64,000 nucleotides of DNA, from the IMG/VR virus record IMGVR_UViG_3300043449_002510, positions 1 to 64,000 of that record. One strand, 5' to 3'. Made by a program: the position numbers and the translations under genes. Below, in pieces: positions 1-45,505 of the stretch. Origin of the DNA: a virus. The notes beneath the pieces are model-generated. The model was given only the letters and a program-made list of their open reading frames with translations. It did no database searches and was not told where the DNA came from. Numbering within the stretch: the stretch's first letter is position 1; each line of letters begins with the position of its first letter.

Positions 1-332
1 TCGTCCCGCTTGGCCCACCAAGCCAGAATCTCTTCTGTCTCGTCCTTCTCCATATGAACGGCACGGGTGACAGTGGCGTTGCCTTCTTCCGTCACCGTCA
101 CCTCGTCCCAAGTGACAATGAACTTGACGAACAGTTCCTTGGGAATCAGGAAGTCGATGCCGTGACCTTCGACAATGACCTCGCCGCCCATCTCATAGAG
201 CCCCCAAGTATTCGCCCGATGCCCCTTCTCATAGGTGTGAGGACCAGACATGAAGTTTACCTTGTAGTCGCTGCCGAGAATGGCGACGTGTTTTTCGTTC
301 TTGATGACCGGAGCGTTCATTTCATTTTTCAT
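1..332 (-). CDS. Small hypothetical early protein (MKNEMNAPVIKNEKHVAILGSDYKV...), runs off the window start
   Basis: Open minus-strand frame from ATG at 332. A sigma70-like promoter TTGCTT-17-GATACT ends 6 nt upstream. Absent from the ORF track because it is truncated. Confidence 0.75.
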   Translation of the reverse strand, partial: MKNEMNAPVIKNEKHVAILGSDYKVNFMSGPHTYEKGHRANTWGLYEMGGEVIVEGHGIDFLIPKELFVKFIVTWDEVTVTEEGNATVTRAVHMEKDETEEILAWWAKRD

Positions 333-338
333 GTCCAA

Positions 339-390
339 AGTATCGGCTAAAGTTCACAAGGAAGCAAGAAGTTTTTTCGACTTTTTTCAG
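339..390 (-). promoter_or_regulatory. sigma70-type promoter with A-tract UP element, leaderless transcript
   Basis: -35 TTGCTT (367-362), 17 bp spacer, -10 GATACT (344-339), 6 nt to ATG, two A-tracts upstream. Confidence 0.75.
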
Positions 391-397
391 GTCATGA

Positions 398-606
398 AGC
401 AGGTCCTGTGCCAAGCAAGTTTCTTTTTGGGTTGGCACGGACCTTGCTTTGGGTTGCTTGTGTAAGTCGTTGAGTATCAACCACTTACAGGGCCCTCCCC
501 CCTACCCCCCACGTAAGTCCTTGATTATCAAGGGTTTACGTAAGCTTTGCGAACAGCAAAAAGCGTGCCACGTCAAGTTTTTTCTTGACTTGGCACAGAG
601 TGTGCT
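398..606. repeat. Regulatory module 1: sigma54 site pair / two IHF-like palindromes / sigma54 site pair
   Basis: TGGCAC-N5-[TGC]TGCT at 398-414(-), 432-448(+), 555-571(-), 590-606(+). Palindromes TAAG-N3-TTGA-N3-TCAA-N4-TTA at 463-487 and 514-538. Confidence 0.85.
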
Positions 607-613
607 AGGGAGC

Positions 614-808
614 CTACTCCCTATCGGCCACCGGGAACCACTTGCCGGTGTCGGGGTCCTGCTCCCACTCGCTGGAGTGGCGACTCTGGTAGCGGCTGTA
701 ACGCCGACGCGCAGAGTATTGCTGAAGCCCCTCTTGCCAAGTAAGCGGGCGAGGGGCGGGAGTCTGGTTGTTGCTGCTGCTGCTGTTGTTGTTGCTTTCG
801 TTTTGCAT
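614..808 (-). CDS. Small hypothetical protein, 64 aa (MQNESNNNSSSSNNQTPAPRPLTWQEG...)
   Basis: Start reassigned from the ORF track (1102) to ATG 808, which lies 6 nt below promoter TTGACC-17-TACTCT. Confidence 0.7.
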   Translation of the reverse strand: MQNESNNNSSSSNNQTPAPRPLTWQEGLQQYSARRRYSRYQSRHSSEWEQDPDTGKWFPVADRE

Positions 809-814
809 GTGTAA

Positions 815-900
815 AGAGTAGTTCAGGATTCGGCTTTGGTCAAGGATTTTTTTCAGATTTTTTTGTATTCTCCCACGGTCGCCAGCAGGAAGAATGCCAA
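815..900 (-). promoter_or_regulatory. sigma70-type promoter plus co-oriented upstream sigma54 motif
   Basis: -35 TTGACC (843-838), -10 TACTCT (820-815), A-tracts; TTGGCATTCTTCCTGCT at 900-884. Confidence 0.75.
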
Positions 901-929
901 CATGATGAGAATGAACATGGGCACAGTTT

Positions 930-1067
930 TTAGTTGCCCTTGTTAAGCTCTTCGCGAAGCTCGCACTCGGCGAGCCACTGTTGGTATTCCTCATGTTCTT
1001 CCGGCGTGAACTGCGCGAAGGAGTAGGTTTCGCTTTGCGGGTCAAGGTTGCTGTTCGTGTTTTGCAT
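930..1067 (-). CDS. Small acidic hypothetical protein, 45 aa (MQNTNSNLDPQSETYSFAQFTPEEHEEYQQWLAECE...)
   Basis: ATG 1067 lies 6 nt below promoter TTGCGT-17-GATACT. Confidence 0.7.
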   Translation of the reverse strand: MQNTNSNLDPQSETYSFAQFTPEEHEEYQQWLAECELREELNKGN

Positions 1068-1073
1068 GTAAGG

Positions 1074-1112
1074 AGTATCGTCTGAACTGCGCCCGGACGC
1101 AAGAGATTTTTC
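1074..1112 (-). promoter_or_regulatory. sigma70-type promoter, leaderless
   Basis: -35 TTGCGT (1102-1097), 17 bp spacer, -10 GATACT (1079-1074). Confidence 0.7.
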
Positions 1113-1141
1113 GCACTCTTCGAAAATTTTTTCCTTGACGG

Positions 1142-1340
1142 TTGGCACGCCAGGTGCTAGCTAGCAGGCTCCGTGCCAAGTGAGATTTTTTTTGGGTTGG
1201 CACAGGTCTTGTTTTTAGCGTGTGTAAGTCGTTGATTATCAACCACTTGTGGGGCCCCCCGCGTAAGTCGTTGATAGTCAAGCACTTACGTAAGCTGCTA
1301 AGAAACAGTGTGCCAACGGTAGCTTGGCACAGATTCTGCT
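1142..1340. repeat. Regulatory module 2: five sigma54 motifs and two IHF-like palindromes
   Basis: sigma54 motifs at 1142(+), 1163(-), 1197(+), 1300(-, degenerate), 1324(+); palindromes at 1225-1249 and 1264-1288. Confidence 0.85.
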
Positions 1341-1345
1341 ATCTT

Positions 1346-1606
1346 TTACCGGCGAGCCACTCGGCGGGGCTTGTCAAACTTTCCGGCCATGATGATGTCG
1401 AAACAACGCACCACGAACTCTTCGGCCTCTTCGTAAAGGTCCGTCCGGTCATCGCCTTCCTTGTCTTCGACGCTAAGGATTTCAACCTCGTCCCCTTCCT
1501 CTTCCCACTCGTCATCGGGACCGTTTTCAGCAGGAACAAGGGTAAAGGTGACGCGCATAACTTCGTAGATGTCCGGTCCGAGTTCGATGTAGAATTGTTT
1601 TTGCAT
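1346..1606 (-). CDS. Small very acidic hypothetical protein, 86 aa (MQKQFYIELGPDIYEVMRVTFTLVPAENGPDDEWEEEGDEVE...)
   Basis: ATG 1606 lies 6 nt below promoter TTGTGT-17-GATACT. The upstream extension in the ORF track crosses the repeat module. Confidence 0.75.
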   Translation of the reverse strand: MQKQFYIELGPDIYEVMRVTFTLVPAENGPDDEWEEEGDEVEILSVEDKEGDDRTDLYEEAEEFVVRCFDIIMAGKFDKPRRVARR

Positions 1607-1612
1607 GCCCAA

Positions 1613-1665
1613 AGTATCGTCGAGAGTTCGCATGGACACAAGGATTTTTTTCAGTTTTTTTTCAG
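1613..1665 (-). promoter_or_regulatory. sigma70-type promoter with UP element, leaderless
   Basis: -35 TTGTGT (1641-1636), 17 bp spacer, -10 GATACT (1618-1613), two A7-8 tracts. Confidence 0.7.
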
Positions 1666-1672
1666 AGGGTGA

Positions 1673-1955
1673 AGCATGTCCCATGCCAAGCGAGATTCTT
1701 TTTAGATTGGCACGGGTTTTGTTTTGGAACATTTGTAAGTCCTTGATTATCAAGCACTTAGGCGGGGGGCCCCATAACATGTTGATACTCAAGCACTTAC
1801 GTAAGCTTCTAACAAGTATCATGCCAACCGTGCCTTGGCACAAGAGCTGCTCCCCCAGCAGGTATCATGCCAAGCTTGCGTTGGCATAGAAACTGCTTCC
1901 CCTAGCAGAGAGTATGCCAAGCCCACTTTTTTGTGAGCTTGGCACGGAGGCTGCT
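1673..1955. repeat. Regulatory module 3: eight sigma54 motifs and two IHF-like palindromes
   Basis: sigma54 motifs at 1673(-), 1707(+), 1811(-), 1835(+), 1857(-), 1881(+), 1904(-), 1939(+); palindromes at 1736-1760 and 1775-1799. Confidence 0.85.
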
Positions 1956-1958
1956 AAC

Positions 1959-2207
1959 TTAGCGGGATTCCTCCCATGCGATGCGTGCGTTTCTAGCATC
2001 TTCCTCTGCGCGTTCGCGCAGGTAGTCCTGCTCCTCTTCCATCCACTCTTGCGCCACCTCATGGAGTTCGGGGTAGCTAACACCCTTGACGGTGACGCCT
2101 TCCAGCTCGAAGGCGTATTCGTCGACATCCCAAGTGACATCAACATAGAGGGTGCAGAGGACGTAGTCGCCTTCCTTGGTCTGGAGTTCAATCTTTTCTA
2201 GTTTCAT
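1959..2207 (-). CDS. Small acidic hypothetical protein, 82 aa
   Basis: ORF track. Promoter TTGCAC-16-TACACT (TG-extended -10) ends 7 nt upstream of the ATG. Confidence 0.8.
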   Translation of the reverse strand: MKLEKIELQTKEGDYVLCTLYVDVTWDVDEYAFELEGVTVKGVSYPELHEVAQEWMEEEQDYLRERAEEDARNARIAWEESR

Positions 2208-2214
2208 TGGAGAC

Positions 2215-2263
2215 AGTGTAGCACCCCGGAGAGAGAGTGCAAGAGATTTTTTTGTTTTTTTTG
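2215..2263 (-). promoter_or_regulatory. sigma70-type promoter with UP element, leaderless
   Basis: -35 TTGCAC (2242-2237), TGc-TACACT (-10 at 2220-2215), A-tracts. Confidence 0.7.
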
Positions 2264-2287
2264 AGATTTATTTGATTGACAAGCGGA

Positions 2288-2503
2288 TTAGTAGTCGTCA
2301 CAGAATGACTCCACTTTCTTGGCGCTGCATTCTTCGCCAATCTTTTTTGCGTCAGCGATTAGACCTTCAAAGTATTCGGCAACCGCGTCTTTGCCTTCAC
2401 TTCTGCAACGTTCAGCCGTTGCAATTAGCGCGCCACTAAGGCGAGCGATTGCGCTATGCATGTCCCAGAATTGCTTATCAGAGAGCTTGTAGCCTTCTTT
2501 CAT
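2288..2503 (-). CDS. Small hypothetical protein, 71 aa
   Basis: ORF track; co-oriented 30 nt downstream of the 2534-2752 gene. Confidence 0.7.
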   Translation of the reverse strand: MKEGYKLSDKQFWDMHSAIARLSGALIATAERCRSEGKDAVAEYFEGLIADAKKIGEECSAKKVESFCDDY

Positions 2504-2508
2504 AGTAT

Positions 2509-2534
2509 GTGTGTGTGTGTGTGTGTGTGTGTGT
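2509..2534. repeat. (GT)13 / (AC)13 microsatellite forming an intercistronic leader
   Basis: Direct reading. Confidence 0.95.
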
Positions 2535-2752
2535 TACCAGACCCGGGCAACGACCTTTTCATAGAGCCACTGCGGTTCAGTAGAGGTAAGCCACTCCAGC
2601 TCCCCTTCCGTCAATTCCCGGAAGGATTTGCCGTCTTCGCTCATGTAGATGCCAGCGGAAAAGTAGGCGTCCGAAAACTCGGGGGCGTCTTTGAAGTCGA
2701 TGCCGTCCACTTCAAGGTCTTTGATGCGTTTCCAATCTAGGTTGTATTTCAT
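2534..2752 (-). CDS. Small acidic phage hypothetical protein, 72 aa (MKYNLDWKRIKDLEVDGIDFKDAPEFSDAYFSAG...)
   Basis: ATG 2752 lies below promoter TTGCGC-17-GATACT (2796-2768). Confidence 0.75.
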   Translation of the reverse strand: MKYNLDWKRIKDLEVDGIDFKDAPEFSDAYFSAGIYMSEDGKSFRELTEGELEWLTSTEPQWLYEKVVARVW

Positions 2753-2767
2753 ATTTAAGATACCAAG

Positions 2768-2894
2768 AGTATCGGTGAGAGTTAGCTTGGGCGCAAGTTT
2801 TTTTTCAATTTTTTTTCGGAGGGGGAGAGCAGATGCCATGCCAACCACCCCCCATTTTTGAAAAAATTTTTTCGAGTTTGGCACGCGGGCTGCC
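2768..2894. promoter_or_regulatory. sigma70-type promoter (-) and last divergent sigma54 motif pair
   Basis: -10 at 2773-2768, -35 at 2796-2791; sigma54 motifs at 2828-2844(-) and 2878-2894(+). Confidence 0.7.
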
Positions 2895-2940
2895 GGGGGG
2901 GCTTATATATGAGTCTCCCCAAATAAATTAAACCAAACAT

Positions 2941-2964
2941 AATAATAATAATAATAATAATAAT
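2941..2964. repeat. (AAT)8 microsatellite at the GC-rich/AT-rich junction
   Basis: Direct reading. Confidence 0.9.
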
Positions 2965-3139
2965 ATAAAATAATAATTAAATACTATATCTCTTTATACC
3001 TCCCCCTATTTCCCAAAAAAGTTAAAGAAATTAAAATAAATTAAAATTAACGAGGCTAAAAAAATCCCGGGACCCCTTTTTTCCTAGACTATTTTCTTGC
3101 AAAGTGTAAAATAATATAGGCACAGGTTAACAAATCTTA

Positions 3140-4813: not shown

Positions 4814-5494
4814 ATGTCCAAAATTAAACGCCCAAAATTTGAAGACTGTTTAGATTTAATAAATATAGAAATAAATAAAAGAAAATCAAAATGGAATTTG
4901 TCTTCCATTGCTTGGATGGACTTTGATGATGTTTCTCAAATTATTAGATTTCATATACATCAAAAGTGGAAGCAATACAATCCTGAAAAACCATTACAAC
5001 CATGGGTTAGCATAATAATAACTAATCAGTTAAGAAATTTAATAAGAAATCATTATACAAATTATGCTAGACCATGTTTAAGATGTGATGCCGCTATTGA
5101 TAGTGATGGTTGCAAAATTTATAAAGAACAATGCGAATCTTGTCCACTTTATTCTCATTGGAAAAAACATAAACAACCTGCTACTTTTGTAAAACTTCCC
5201 GTTTCAATAGAAAATCACAATTATGAAGTTCATAGCATAGAAGACAATCATTCATATGGAGCAGAAGATATTCAAAAACTTCATGATATAATGAAAAAAA
5301 TATTAAAACCAATAGAATATCAAGTTTACAAAGGTTTATATATTGACCATTTGGATGAAGCTGCCGTTGCTAAAAAATTAGGTTTTATTTCAAATGAAAA
5401 AGGAAGGTCTCCCGGCTATAGACAAATTAAAAATATAACTAAATCAATAATCATAAAAGCAAAAACTTATATAGAAAAAGAAGGTTTAGATTAA
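4814..5494 (+). CDS. Phage RNA polymerase sigma factor (sigma70/ECF-like), probable late sigma
   Basis: Region 2-like DFDDVSQIIRFHIHQKWKQYNPEKPLQPWVSIIITNQLRNLIR; region 4-like LKPIEYQVY...VAKKLG; Cys-rich insert. Confidence 0.75.
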   Translation: MSKIKRPKFEDCLDLINIEINKRKSKWNLSSIAWMDFDDVSQIIRFHIHQKWKQYNPEKPLQPWVSIIITNQLRNLIRNHYTNYARPCLRCDAAIDSDGCKIYKEQCESCPLYSHWKKHKQPATFVKLPVSIENHNYEVHSIEDNHSYGAEDIQKLHDIMKKILKPIEYQVYKGLYIDHLDEAAVAKKLGFISNEKGRSPGYRQIKNITKSIIIKAKTYIEKEGLD

Positions 5495-43663: not shown

Positions 43664-45505
43664 ATGCCGCGCCACATAATTGATTCAGGAATTCAGTTCA
43701 TTAATGCCATAAATACATCAGGGGTTCCCTTGACTATTTCTGGCGTTAGTGGACAGAGTTCCAATTTGCTTAGAACAATAAACGGCGCAGATGGATCAGT
43801 TTTAACTTCTTTAAGAAGCAATGGATATGTTGGCTCAAAAGGTTTAAAAATAACAAATGATTCAAATGCTGATATAATAACTCTTTCATTATATAATAAT
43901 TATGGATTAATGGTTGATTGTTACGGTGGTCAAACATTTTTTAGCAATTCAAATGGAACAATAGTAACATTAGGTGGTTATATAGGTGGAACAACTAATG
44001 GATACTTTGCATTAGGAGCAACTACCTTAAATAATAGTGTTAATGCTGGTCAAGACACGATTTTTTATCGTGACGCCGCTGGAATATTCGCCCAAAGAAA
44101 TGGTGTAAATTCTCAAACTTTTAGAGTTTATAATACTTATTCAACAACTGGCAATTTTGAAAGAGGCAAAATAGGTTGGAACAACAACGCTTTTGAAATT
44201 GGAACCGAACAAGGTACAACTGGTGGAGTTGCAAGAGATTTGCGCTTTTTAACTAGCGGCTCTGGAAGAATGACGATTACTAGTGGCGGAAATGTAGGAA
44301 TAGGTACAATTAATCCTACAGCTAATTTAGATGTAGATGGTAGTGTAAAAATTGCTAGCGCCAGAAATAATCAATTTCCTCTTTCTATTTACGGAGGTAA
44401 TAGTTCCGCTCAAGCGTGTCATATAATATTGTACAACAATGTTCCTGTTGGAGTTATTAAAGCAGGTGGCAATGGTACAGTTGGGCAAGGATTCGCTAAT
44501 TCAAGTTATAATTACCAACTTTTTGTTAGATGGTCAGATGGTAATGTTGGAATAAATACAACATCACCAAATTATACTTTAGATGTCAATGGCTCTGGAA
44601 TTTTCCAAAGTGGTTTATCAGTTAGCGGTCAAATCATAACAAATCAACGTCCATTAATAAATGGCACCCCAGTTCTTCTCAGCGGAGAGGGCGGCGGAGC
44701 TACTCCAGCAAATTTAGTTTATACAACTGGTACCCAAACAATAGCTGGAGAAAAAACTTTCAGTAATAAAGCCAATTTTTATTCTGGTTTTTCTGTTGGT
44801 AATAATTATTTAAACGCTGACTTTAATAGTTTCGAAATTTTCGATGATCCAAATTTCCTTACTGTAATGAAGTATGCTGAAAATACTGAATTTTATTTTG
44901 AAGGGCCATCTGGAGCAAAAGTTGATGTATGGAATAGCAATGTTTCTAATTTTGATAAAATTTCTTCAAATTTAATTTCTGGCACTAACCTCAGTTTAGA
45001 AAGTGGAATTAAATTTAACGGAGGCATTTCTAATAAAAGCTTCGAGATCTATAAAGATGACAAAACTTACAATTTTAGCATGGGGCCTACTGGAACTTGG
45101 GGCGCTTTTGGTTCAACTTTAATTTCTTTAACTAGTGGTGGCCCAAACATTAGTAATAATTTTACTCCATCTTTTAAATTAATAGATCAATCAAATTCTC
45201 AATTTTTTGAAATTGGTGGATATTCTGATGATGAACAATATGGTTCATTTAGCACTTTTAGAATGGGGAGCGAGGGGCTTGGATATTGGAGTGCAGGTGG
45301 TGGAATTTTTGCTGTAAGAGGAACAAATGTAGGTATAGGTACTGCTTATCCTGGTCATAAATTAGATGTAGATGGTAATATTAATGCCACTAGTTTTTCT
45401 TCAAGTGGAAACGCAGGAATGACAACTTCCGTCTCTGTTATAGATAATAGCAACAATGTAATTACATTAAACTTTGAGAACGGATTACTTATATCAATAA
45501 CTTAA
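43664..45505 (+). CDS. Fibre protein sharing modules with 32655-38825
   Basis: RDAAGIFAQRNGVNSQTFRVYNTY module; GNVGIGT repeats. Confidence 0.7.
   Translation: MPRHIIDSGIQFINAINTSGVPLTISGVSGQSSNLLRTINGADGSVLTSLRSNGYVGSKGLKITNDSNADIITLSLYNNYGLMVDCYGGQTFFSNSNGTIVTLGGYIGGTTNGYFALGATTLNNSVNAGQDTIFYRDAAGIFAQRNGVNSQTFRVYNTYSTTGNFERGKIGWNNNAFEIGTEQGTTGGVARDLRFLTSGSGRMTITSGGNVGIGTINPTANLDVDGSVKIASARNNQFPLSIYGGNSSAQACHIILYNNVPVGVIKAGGNGTVGQGFANSSYNYQLFVRWSDGNVGINTTSPNYTLDVNGSGIFQSGLSVSGQIITNQRPLINGTPVLLSGEGGGATPANLVYTTGTQTIAGEKTFSNKANFYSGFSVGNNYLNADFNSFEIFDDPNFLTVMKYAENTEFYFEGPSGAKVDVWNSNVSNFDKISSNLISGTNLSLESGIKFNGGISNKSFEIYKDDKTYNFSMGPTGTWGAFGSTLISLTSGGPNISNNFTPSFKLIDQSNSQFFEIGGYSDDEQYGSFSTFRMGSEGLGYWSAGGGIFAVRGTNVGIGTAYPGHKLDVDGNINATSFSSSGNAGMTTSVSVIDNSNNVITLNFENGLLISIT

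Follow-up and report, generated by a model that had tools for sequence, protein, structure and literature searches.

Paired palindromes that may act as symmetric IHF/HU-type docking sites between small gene cassettes of an uncultured phage

Introduction

Promoters of the IHF-assisted sigma54 type, such as Pu, nifH and glnHp2, are laid out as an enhancer, an integration host factor (IHF) bend and a -24/-12 promoter, and some enterobacterial elements of the bacterial interspersed mosaic element (BIME) or repetitive extragenic palindrome (REP) type hold an IHF site between two REPs (RIP and RIB elements). Here we analyse six 25-bp palindromes, arranged as three pairs around G/C-rich spacers at one end of an uncultured phage genome, each of which is better read as a putative IHF site mirrored about its own pseudo-dyad. 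The window, i.e. the whole stretch of DNA analysed, corresponds to positions 1 to 64,000 of a single 124,148-bp viral contig (IMG/VR record IMGVR_UViG_3300043449_002510), which is estimated to be 81% complete.

The passages of earlier papers that bear most closely on such elements propose that BIMEs are topological insulators blocking the diffusion of supercoils between transcription units (PMC6907758), tie the promoter-early stem-loop (PeSL) cassettes of the T4-type phages RB49 and phi1 to modular shuffling (PMC2839356) and report 'phage promoters' predicted with PHIRE in Stenotrophomonas phage DLP6 (PMC5349666). Our literature search of full texts, which did not cover supplementary files, turned up one relevant paper, that on DLP6, and found no description of the paired element; a match in Riemerella turned out to consist only of two overlapping primers.

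Results

Six palindromes with the geometry of a mirrored IHF site

The original prediction had placed six 25-bp palindromes at positions 463, 514, 1225, 1264, 1736 and 1775, and all of them are found there. Searching the window for TAAGTCSTTGANNNTCAANNACTTA with up to three mismatches returns 12 matches, i.e. the six sites read on both strands, while 0.01 are expected (100 shuffles); on the + strand the mismatches number 0, 2, 1, 0, 0 and 3 in site order. There is no further match at this threshold elsewhere in the 64-kb window, and a looser core searched with up to three mismatches yields no additional site across the whole contig. Pair 1 consists of palindrome 1a (463-487, TAAGTCGTTGA-GTA-TCAACCACTTA, a predicted symmetrised IHF-type site) and palindrome 1b (514-538), separated by a spacer (488-513) that is C-rich on the + strand and whose reverse complement resembles the G-rich spacers of a related viral locus, L100. 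In pair 2 (palindromes 2a, 1225-1249, and 2b, 1264-1288) and pair 3 (3a, 1736-1760, and 3b, 1775-1799), the spacers (1250-1263 and 1761-1774) share the core GGGGCCCC. Direct reading confirms that GGGCCC occurs in every spacer and TTACGTAAGCT after every pair, and that start-to-start distances within pairs are 51, 39 and 39 bp; these had been said to differ by about one helical turn, which is roughly true at most, as the 12-bp difference (51 vs 39) amounts to 1.14 turns. Whole modules are themselves large imperfect palindromes (repeat pair I2, with arms of 53 nt that are 72% complementary).

The half-sites had also been said to fit the IHF consensus, and 9 of the 12 do match WATCAANNNNTTR, with at least one match per palindrome: both strands match in 1b, 2a and 3a, and the - strand matches in 2b and in 3b, the most degenerate copy (three mismatches). 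The window contains 23 matches to this consensus (12.6 expected for the whole window), of which 9 are in the palindromes and 14 in the other ~63.8 kb; the latter are at about chance level.

The likeness extends to geometry. In the numbering of the lambda H' site given in one account, position 44 is the middle T of TTR (10.1101/382655), and the IHF prolines are described as intercalating at a pair of AA steps separated by 9 bp, of which one lies within WATCAA (PMC1874591); taken together, these two statements place the pseudo-dyad on W. Mirroring the IHF consensus about this W gives YAA-N4-TTGA-TWA-TCAA-N4-TTR, which is 25 bp long with three bases between TTGA and TCAA, like the palindrome found here. 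A central trinucleotide with W in its middle sets TT and AA steps 9 bp apart, as at the IHF kinks, and in lambda H' (NC_001416) a TT likewise lies exactly 9 bp left of the AA in its TATCAA. Lambda H1 (AATCAACTACTTA, NC_001416) and the arm typical of the palindrome family described below (AATCAACGACTTA) are identical at 12 of 13 bases.

An unbiased profile was built from 91 partner sites in 53 loci, chosen by their position beside an exact copy and weighted by locus. Its consensus is TAA-N4-TTGA-tWa-TCAA-N4-TTA, with near-invariant columns T1 A2 A3, T8 T9 G10 A11, T15 C16 A17 A18 and T23 T24 A25, including the two kinkable steps 9 bp apart (T8-T9 and A17-A18); W occupies the centre in 89%, and the site is bordered by CG on either side. 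Among 478 palindromes of the family, 359 have xTA or TAx as their central triplet, and 391 carry the full WATCAANNNNTTR on at least one strand (a tally of centre counts), versus an estimated ~25% for a random centre.

The original prediction regarded each palindrome as two back-to-back IHF sites. The IHF words are indeed there, but two sites so placed would overlap and could not both be occupied, and for this reason we prefer one symmetric site per palindrome. The palindrome is better read as an IHF site mirrored about its pseudo-dyad, which would receive a single dimer, a reading supported in sequence and geometry; the interpretation proposed originally is, overall, partly supported.

A duplex protein site rather than a hairpin

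The inner dinucleotides of the two arms are independent of each other, being self-complementary in just 102 of the 478 palindromes. In a covariation analysis of 465 palindromes, covariation is absent or negative at the variable pairs 6/20, 7/19, 5/21 and 8/18 (z = -3.1, -0.2, 0.0 and -0.5, respectively), and pair 4/22 alone is mildly positive (z = 3.9). As sequence is conserved while pairing is not, the palindromes are most consistent with a protein site in duplex DNA.

A widespread family in phage contigs

At least 119 stretches from viral contigs and at least 120 from bacterial genome contigs carry the core word TAAGT-NN-TTGA-NNN-TCAA-NN-ACTTA. We identified 236 paired modules (spacer ≥70% G+C) in 68 viral loci, and many of the pairs recur every 0.3-2 kb. 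Spacing is rigid within a phage, 91% of modules being at the modal value of their locus (25 loci with at least four modules). Modal values per locus are 40-42 bp (12 loci), 45-47 bp (5), 48-51 bp (41), 53 bp (4) and 58-60 bp (6). A quantisation of spacing in ~10.5-bp steps, which the original prediction had proposed to look for, is not observed: the family clusters around 41.5, 50 and 58 bp, i.e. in steps of ~8 bp, and the window itself mixes 51 with 39.

Four large contigs carry a TerL 41-50% identical to that of the phage. In G002 and G004, the two of these four that were fetched whole, a genome of ~30% GC has an island of 43-49% GC at a contig end, with pairs 50 bp apart and the same predicted leaderless promoter blocks downstream. 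L100 shows the same AT-rich/GC-rich junction as the window, near-identical G-rich spacers and sigma54-like elements at matching places. The islands of G002 and G004 are mosaics, in which blocks of homology often end near modules. The palindrome modules are a widespread and barely described family located between small phage gene cassettes.

The arm TCAACGACTTA also occurs in DLP6 (KU682439), 28 times in forward and 4 times in reverse orientation, mostly paired and upstream of gene clusters. At 45312-45347 and 74441-74476, for example, two copies of AAATCAACGACTTA with the full IHF consensus lie in tandem, 25 bp apart, and a GC hairpin and then a GCTTTAC...TATAAT promoter come after the tandem arms. 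No full palindrome was found in DLP6 at up to three mismatches. Stenotrophomonas belongs to the Proteobacteria, a group in which IHF is known, and we count the presence of AAATCAACGACTTA in a phage of such a host in favour of an IHF-type reading.

Modules lie between a gene end and a predicted leaderless promoter

Modules are intergenic, located after the 3' end of one gene and before the promoter of the next. Six of the seven open reading frames (ORFs) of the island are preceded by a block made of two A-tracts, TTGnnn, 16-17 nt, (G/T)A(T/C)ACT and, 6-7 nt further on (15 nt in one case), the ATG, an arrangement that suggests sigma70-type promoters with an UP-like element and a leaderless start. 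These putative promoter blocks are on the minus strand at 330-390, 806-868, 1065-1125, 1604-1664, 2205-2270 and 2750-2820. The first (double A-tract, TTGCTT, 17 nt, GATACT, 6 nt, ATG at 332-330; repeat D1) precedes the apparently leaderless ORF 3-332, and the centre of the proximal palindrome lies 143 bp upstream of this ATG. For ORF 930-1067 (block 1065-1125, ATG at 1067-1065) and ORF 1346-1606 (block 1604-1664, ATG at 1606-1604), the palindrome centre lies 170 and 142 bp upstream, respectively. Across 49 sequences, we found 154 module-promoter pairs in which the proximal palindrome centre is 53-269 bp upstream of a TTG-N17-TAnnnT-N6-ATG block. This putatively leaderless design is shared by G002, G004 and L100. 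In relatives, separate intrinsic terminators precede some modules, and one module of L100 lies between convergent genes.

Sigma54-like elements face into the pairs

The word TGGCACNNNNNNTGC (up to one mismatch) matches the window 27 times, and 22 of these matches are within positions 1-2900, although only 4.84 are expected for the whole window. The 22 sigma54-like TGGCAC-N5-TTGC elements thus packed into 2.9 kb (399-2893) are mostly inverted couples, with -24 GG and -12 GC parts at canonical spacing. As originally predicted, elements of this kind flank all three pairs and face inward. Pair 1 is enclosed by 433-447 (+) and 556-570 (-), the latter forming, together with 591-605, a hairpin with a T-run after ORF 614-808. 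Around pair 2 are 1198-1212 (+, one mismatch) and a degenerate element at 1301-1316 (-), which keeps TTGGCAC, has a poor -12 part (TTCT) and lies in a terminator-like hairpin (1309-1331). Pair 3 lies between 1708-1722 (+, one mismatch) and 1812-1826 (-, a TGGCAT variant). Elements sit between pair and promoter as well as on the far side of each pair, and outward-facing ones are found upstream of three promoters: 399-413 (-), back to back with 433-447, for ORF 3-332, 1164-1178 (-) for ORF 930-1067, and 1674-1688 (-, one mismatch) for ORF 1346-1606.

Elements adjoining a pair face into it without exception, with 11-16 nt between the end of the -12 part and the palindrome edge, a gap that holds on all 12 flanks with an inward element (the three pairs here plus L100 modules). 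In L100, inward elements are found on both sides of 3-4 of 9 modules. Inward sigma54-like elements are conserved in the lineage of the window phage. Some couples behind ORF ends also resemble weak terminator hairpins. A separate occurrence is seen in three paralogous cassettes of L100 (~10200, 10930 and 12040), in which a sigma54-like element lies ~15 nt upstream of the ATG.

In other phage contigs, TTGGCAC/GTGCCAA occurs within 150 bp of only 36 of the 227 modules, the other 191 lacking it. This is still a ~3-fold enrichment over background (0.049 per 300 bp), and on the right flank of modules the word is inward in 25 cases and outward in one. With so few modules carrying the word elsewhere, and with close relatives whose palindrome pairs lack TTGGCAC/GTGCCAA, the claim that the two host motifs reinforce each other is not supported. 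Nor is the canonical sigma54 layout: no palindrome lies between an enhancer and a promoter, at about -40 to -70, where an IHF site would be expected. Instead, the palindromes are at about -75 to -142 from the starts of the outward elements (starts estimated from sequence), and the predicted starts of the inward elements fall on palindrome edges. Neither Sigma54_activat (PF00158) nor Sigma54_DBD (PF04552) has a six-frame match in the contig at its estimated 81% completeness. Reading the pair as an extracytoplasmic function (ECF) sigma promoter (AAC, 16-17 nt, CGT) was rejected by eye, since the spacing is at least 19 nt in pair 2 and larger in pair 1.

Chromosomal copies in scattered bacterial genomes

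With at most one mismatch, the palindrome occurs 463 times in G005, a Microscillaceae metagenome-assembled genome (MAG), 200 times in G006 (WOR-3), 101 times in G007 (Hydrothermia), and 53 and 45 times in G008 and G009; the reversed control gives 0. An Akkermansia MAG (G163) has 15 sites at the same threshold. The sample comprised ~240 genomes in all. Bacterial sites are intergenic, their N positions are randomised, and they show no bias to gene starts or ends (60 in tandem, 30 in divergent and 14 in convergent gaps, versus 180, 89 and 52 for all gaps). A spread of the REP/RAYT kind was considered and rejected: the Y1 transposase (PF01797) has no match in G006 or G007, none of the eight PF01797 matches in G005, G008 and G009 is flanked by palindrome sites, and compensatory changes are not seen. 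No TerL was confirmed in the bacterial genome contigs, and none was found in the five site-rich bacterial genomes.

Two contexts of the bacterial copies are worth recording. In WOR-3 contigs (L121-L235), the palindrome shares a composite intergenic repeat of ~250 bp, often in tandem, with a GGGGGGC-TTCG-GCCCCCC hairpin and a conserved word, TTGGACAAAGCA. In the bacterial loci L125, L126, L132, L145, L146, L164 and L183, the palindrome is extended to a longer perfect hairpin beside the end of a tRNA or tmRNA gene; such tRNA-adjacent copies could be a terminator or attachment-site feature.

The GC-rich island and the rest of the contig

The contig has ~30% G+C for the most part and 51% in its first 2.9 kb. 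Seven small ORFs, all on the minus strand, lie in this GC-rich island (1-2900), which is cut off by the contig end. None of the seven has a Pfam match, and relatives in the fetched loci were seen for just two (in L100 and L024); island ORFs are poorly conserved. Against isolated phages, blastn with positions 1-3000 matched nothing, and blastn with a short module gave only short matches (best E = 0.06, others E = 0.7-9). No Rfam family reaches its gathering score, the sole listed match being a miRNA model (E = 0.39). An assembly chimera can be ruled out as the source of the island, because G002, G004 and L100 have the same AT-rich/GC-rich junction. Corresponding islands in ~30% GC genomes lie at ~91-104.7 kb in G002 and ~136-143.7 kb in G004 (43-49% GC, compared with 51% here); the island is thus kept among phages whose TerL is just 41-50% identical, and all three contigs break inside it. 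Between ORF 2288-2503 and ORF 2534-2752 lies a (TG)n microsatellite of ~13 units (2505-2534), a possible length-variable tract.

Elsewhere, the contig encodes three sigma70-family sigma factors (window 4814-5494; contig 109183-109812, minus strand; contig 116114-116632, plus strand). All three have region 2, and the third adds region 4 and looks ECF-like. Their presence suggests a phage-run transcription cascade following a host-dependent early island. A replication module on the minus strand (contig 84725-104178) comprises DNA polymerase III alpha with its PHP domain on an ORF of its own, DnaB, a primase and a PD-(D/E)XK nuclease. It adjoins genes for a GDP-mannose dehydratase, an epimerase, a glycosyltransferase and several methyltransferases, and a SET-domain protein is encoded at 105602-106507. 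At the right end (contig 124000-124148), there is a tRNA-like 3' part with CCA and 48% GC, although ARAGORN calls no tRNA gene anywhere in the contig. The phage has a PhageMin_Tail tape-measure protein and is not T4-type. Relatives of its TerL among isolates are all distant (21-26% identity), so no host can be inferred from isolates. One protein (contig 118791-119477, plus strand) combines a prepilin-type N-terminal methylation motif with DUF1559 (SBP_bac_10), a pairing that we take to be typical of Planctomycetota and Verrucomicrobiota and thus a weak hint of a host in the Planctomycetes-Verrucomicrobia-Chlamydiae (PVC) group.

Discussion

A proposed boundary module with two predicted bends

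We favour the view, to which we give about an even chance of being right, that the palindromes are symmetric IHF/HU-type docking sites in boundary modules. At each 25-bp palindrome, a single dimer of a DNA-bending, IHF/HU-type protein, most probably supplied by the host, would dock to duplex DNA with high affinity; in a two-fold symmetric IHF site (YAA-N4-TTGA-tWa-TCAA-N4-TTR), both halves of the dimer would meet consensus DNA. A module would then consist of two such sites around a stiff G/C block, placed by the phage between small early-gene cassettes, downstream of the end of one gene and 142-170 bp upstream of the next predicted leaderless sigma70-type promoter. Its role would be architectural, the two sharp bends marking a boundary that insulates neighbouring strong transcription units; the bends could also bring upstream DNA to the promoter. 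This boundary role is favoured by analogy with the insulation proposed for BIMEs (PMC6907758). Conserved modules may in addition serve as homologous joints for the exchange of cassettes between related phages, probably as a by-product, as with PeSLs.

Several observations weigh against an IHF/HU-type binder or against the proposed role. The A/T-rich tract that lies opposite the consensus in some IHF sites only is missing, the other half being the mirrored consensus, and the flanks that IHF would wrap consist of CG and then G/C-rich DNA, with no A-tract. Information content is far above that of the E. coli IHF consensus, with G4/T5, A21/C22 and the CG flanks conserved too. No HU/IHF-family gene (PF00216) was detected in the contig or in five related contigs, which are fragments estimated to be 22-83% complete, and the genome with 463 sites, G005, has only weak PF00216 matches (34 and 28 bits). 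Of the other genomes sampled, no more than 3 of 150 in Bacteroidota and 2 of 80 in Verrucomicrobiota match the palindrome, and a nucleoid-protein site common to either lineage was rejected on these counts; given this sporadic scatter, a special and perhaps horizontally moving binder fits better than a universal nucleoid protein. As for the promoters, a generic consensus promoter scan flagged none of the sigma70-type blocks, and module-promoter distances vary, with weak periodicity (mean resultant length 0.19-0.22, the copies not being independent).

Other explanations

Alternatively, a dedicated, sequence-specific dimeric regulator with another fold, carried by the phage or by a mobile element, may use the palindromes as operators or upstream activating sites, and their likeness to IHF sites would be convergence; in the window phage, this regulator could belong to the enhancer-binding proteins and act on the outward sigma54-like promoters. 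An information content above the need of any IHF consensus fits this well, as do the sporadic, genome-specific chromosomal copies and the location of dyad-symmetric sites ~75-91 and 114-142 bp upstream of the estimated starts of the outward elements, since enhancer-binding proteins usually sit at such distances. Yet the mirrored IHF pattern is matched exactly in both spacing and content, which we judge unlikely by chance, and the sites are 142-170 bp from the sigma70-type promoters, rather than overlying them like operators. No PF00158 or PF04552 match exists in the six frames of the contig, Pfam scans of 58 ORFs, about half of the total, brought up no helix-turn-helix regulator, a sigma54-like word is lacking within 150 bp of 191 of the 227 modules elsewhere, and hundreds of chromosomal sites exceed the regulon of an enhancer-binding protein. 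Such a regulator is therefore somewhat unlikely. The palindromes could also act as nucleic-acid structures, either hairpins in RNA, as in terminators or RNase III sites, or cruciforms extruded from DNA. Both the sites (11-3-11) and, imperfectly and on a larger scale, the whole modules are palindromic, in some phages and WOR-3 genomes the G/C part makes a tetraloop hairpin, a terminator hairpin comes after the sites in DLP6, and some bacterial copies are extended to longer perfect palindromes beside tRNA genes. We find this barely credible, as it is sequence, not pairing, that is conserved: the variable arm positions do not covary, on which ground the hairpin or RNA reading was rejected, and C-C and G-G oppositions are frequent in the arms. 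Moreover, relatives have separate intrinsic terminators before some modules, the spacers here (GGGGCCCC) allow no loop, and no Rfam family reaches its gathering score.

Modules might also be primarily recombination joints, either crossover sites of a site-specific recombinase or conserved homology patches for general recombination, as with PeSLs, through which small gene cassettes are shuffled. They lie between cassettes in a hyperplastic region in which only two of seven ORFs have relatives in the fetched loci, homology blocks of the mosaic G002 and G004 islands end near modules, and paired dimer sites 39-58 bp apart recall the res sites of resolvases. PeSLs provide a precedent for regulatory cassettes with this effect (PMC2839356). 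This account is nevertheless distinctly improbable: no integrase, resolvase or transposase was found among 58 ORFs (Pfam) or 10 (PHROGs), about half of the ORFs being scanned, Y1 transposases are missing from G006 and G007 (200 and 101 sites) and are not found beside sites in the other genomes, and randomised variable positions beside preserved protein-contact positions are unlike recent copying. Exchange by homology, for its part, needs no special function and is compatible with symmetric IHF/HU-type sites. There remains the full model of the original prediction, in which each palindrome holds two back-to-back IHF sites and each pair, phased by whole turns, forms a loop with two inward sigma54 holoenzymes. 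Inward elements 11-16 nt from the edge at all three pairs and at 3-4 of 9 L100 modules speak for it, and so do the ~3-fold enrichment of the word near modules elsewhere and its inward orientation on the right flank (25 vs 1). We nonetheless consider it very unlikely, because occupation of one of two overlapping sites would exclude that of the other, neither the spacings here (39 and 51) nor the family modes (near 41.5, 50 and 58) are multiples of 10.5, most family modules lack the sigma54-like word, no gene for an enhancer-binding protein or sigma54 was found in the contig, and the palindromes would extend from about +1 to +25 of the inward promoters, a position in which a bound protein is an obstacle rather than a help. 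A bolder picture, which we regard as unlikely, takes the palindrome to be the word at which an architectural protein of high sequence specificity and IHF/HU-like geometry docks. Its sites would have multiplied to hundreds of copies in a handful of scattered bacterial genomes, and a large group of uncultured phages would use the word in rigid pairs as boundaries between leaderless early cassettes; here, the pairs would be clamped by convergent sigma54-type elements starting at the palindrome edges, making a switchable barrier of holoenzyme plus bender or a source of short convergent transcripts.

Should a protein of the IHF/HU type dock at the palindromes, the modules would be among the most information-rich natural sites of this class and a ready-made pair of sharp bends, and from them one would learn how arrays of strong early promoters are partitioned in large uncultured phages. 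In metagenomic phage contigs they would serve as a sequence handle on early regions, on the limits of cassettes and possibly on hosts. As to annotation, the published 'phage promoter' reading of the related DLP6 word is corrected by the present result. The scattered bacterial genomes with hundreds of copies provide a direct route to the binder.

Comparison with known systems

The closest counterparts in sequence are the lambda attP sites H1, H2 and H' and the E. coli consensus WATCAANNNNTTR, all of which share with the palindromes TCAA, four bases and TTR, with W-A in front; the lambda sites and the palindromes also have kinkable AA/TT steps 9 bp apart in common. Lambda sites are asymmetric, as just one half has the consensus (in H', the opposite half has an A-tract), whereas the palindromes carry the consensus in both halves and differ further in their extra conserved positions, CG flanks, G/C-rich surroundings and fixed pairs. 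In DLP6, the arms are direct repeats, each a single asymmetric IHF-consensus word, in contrast to the palindromes here.

As in IHF-assisted sigma54 promoters, IHF-type sites co-occur with TGGCAC-N5-TTGC elements in the window and in L100. Here, in contrast, the bend site is not between enhancer and promoter, predicted inward starts are at the palindrome edge, no gene for an enhancer-binding protein was found in the contig, and the genes have predicted leaderless promoters of the sigma70 type. BIME/REP elements resemble the modules in being multicopy, intergenic, palindromic and bound by architectural proteins (a predicted property for the palindromes). REPs, however, are hairpins with compensatory changes that are spread by REP-associated tyrosine transposases (RAYTs), whereas the palindromes show neither covariation nor a flanking Y1 (RAYT) transposase, and the palindrome itself is the IHF-like site. 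PeSL cassettes (PMC2839356) resemble the modules as short conserved elements with a regulatory role, putative in the modules, that lie among small non-essential genes in a hyperplastic early region. They join a sigma70 early promoter to a terminator hairpin; the modules described here are instead a pair of protein-site palindromes around a G/C block, without hairpin covariation and standing 142-170 bp apart from the promoter.

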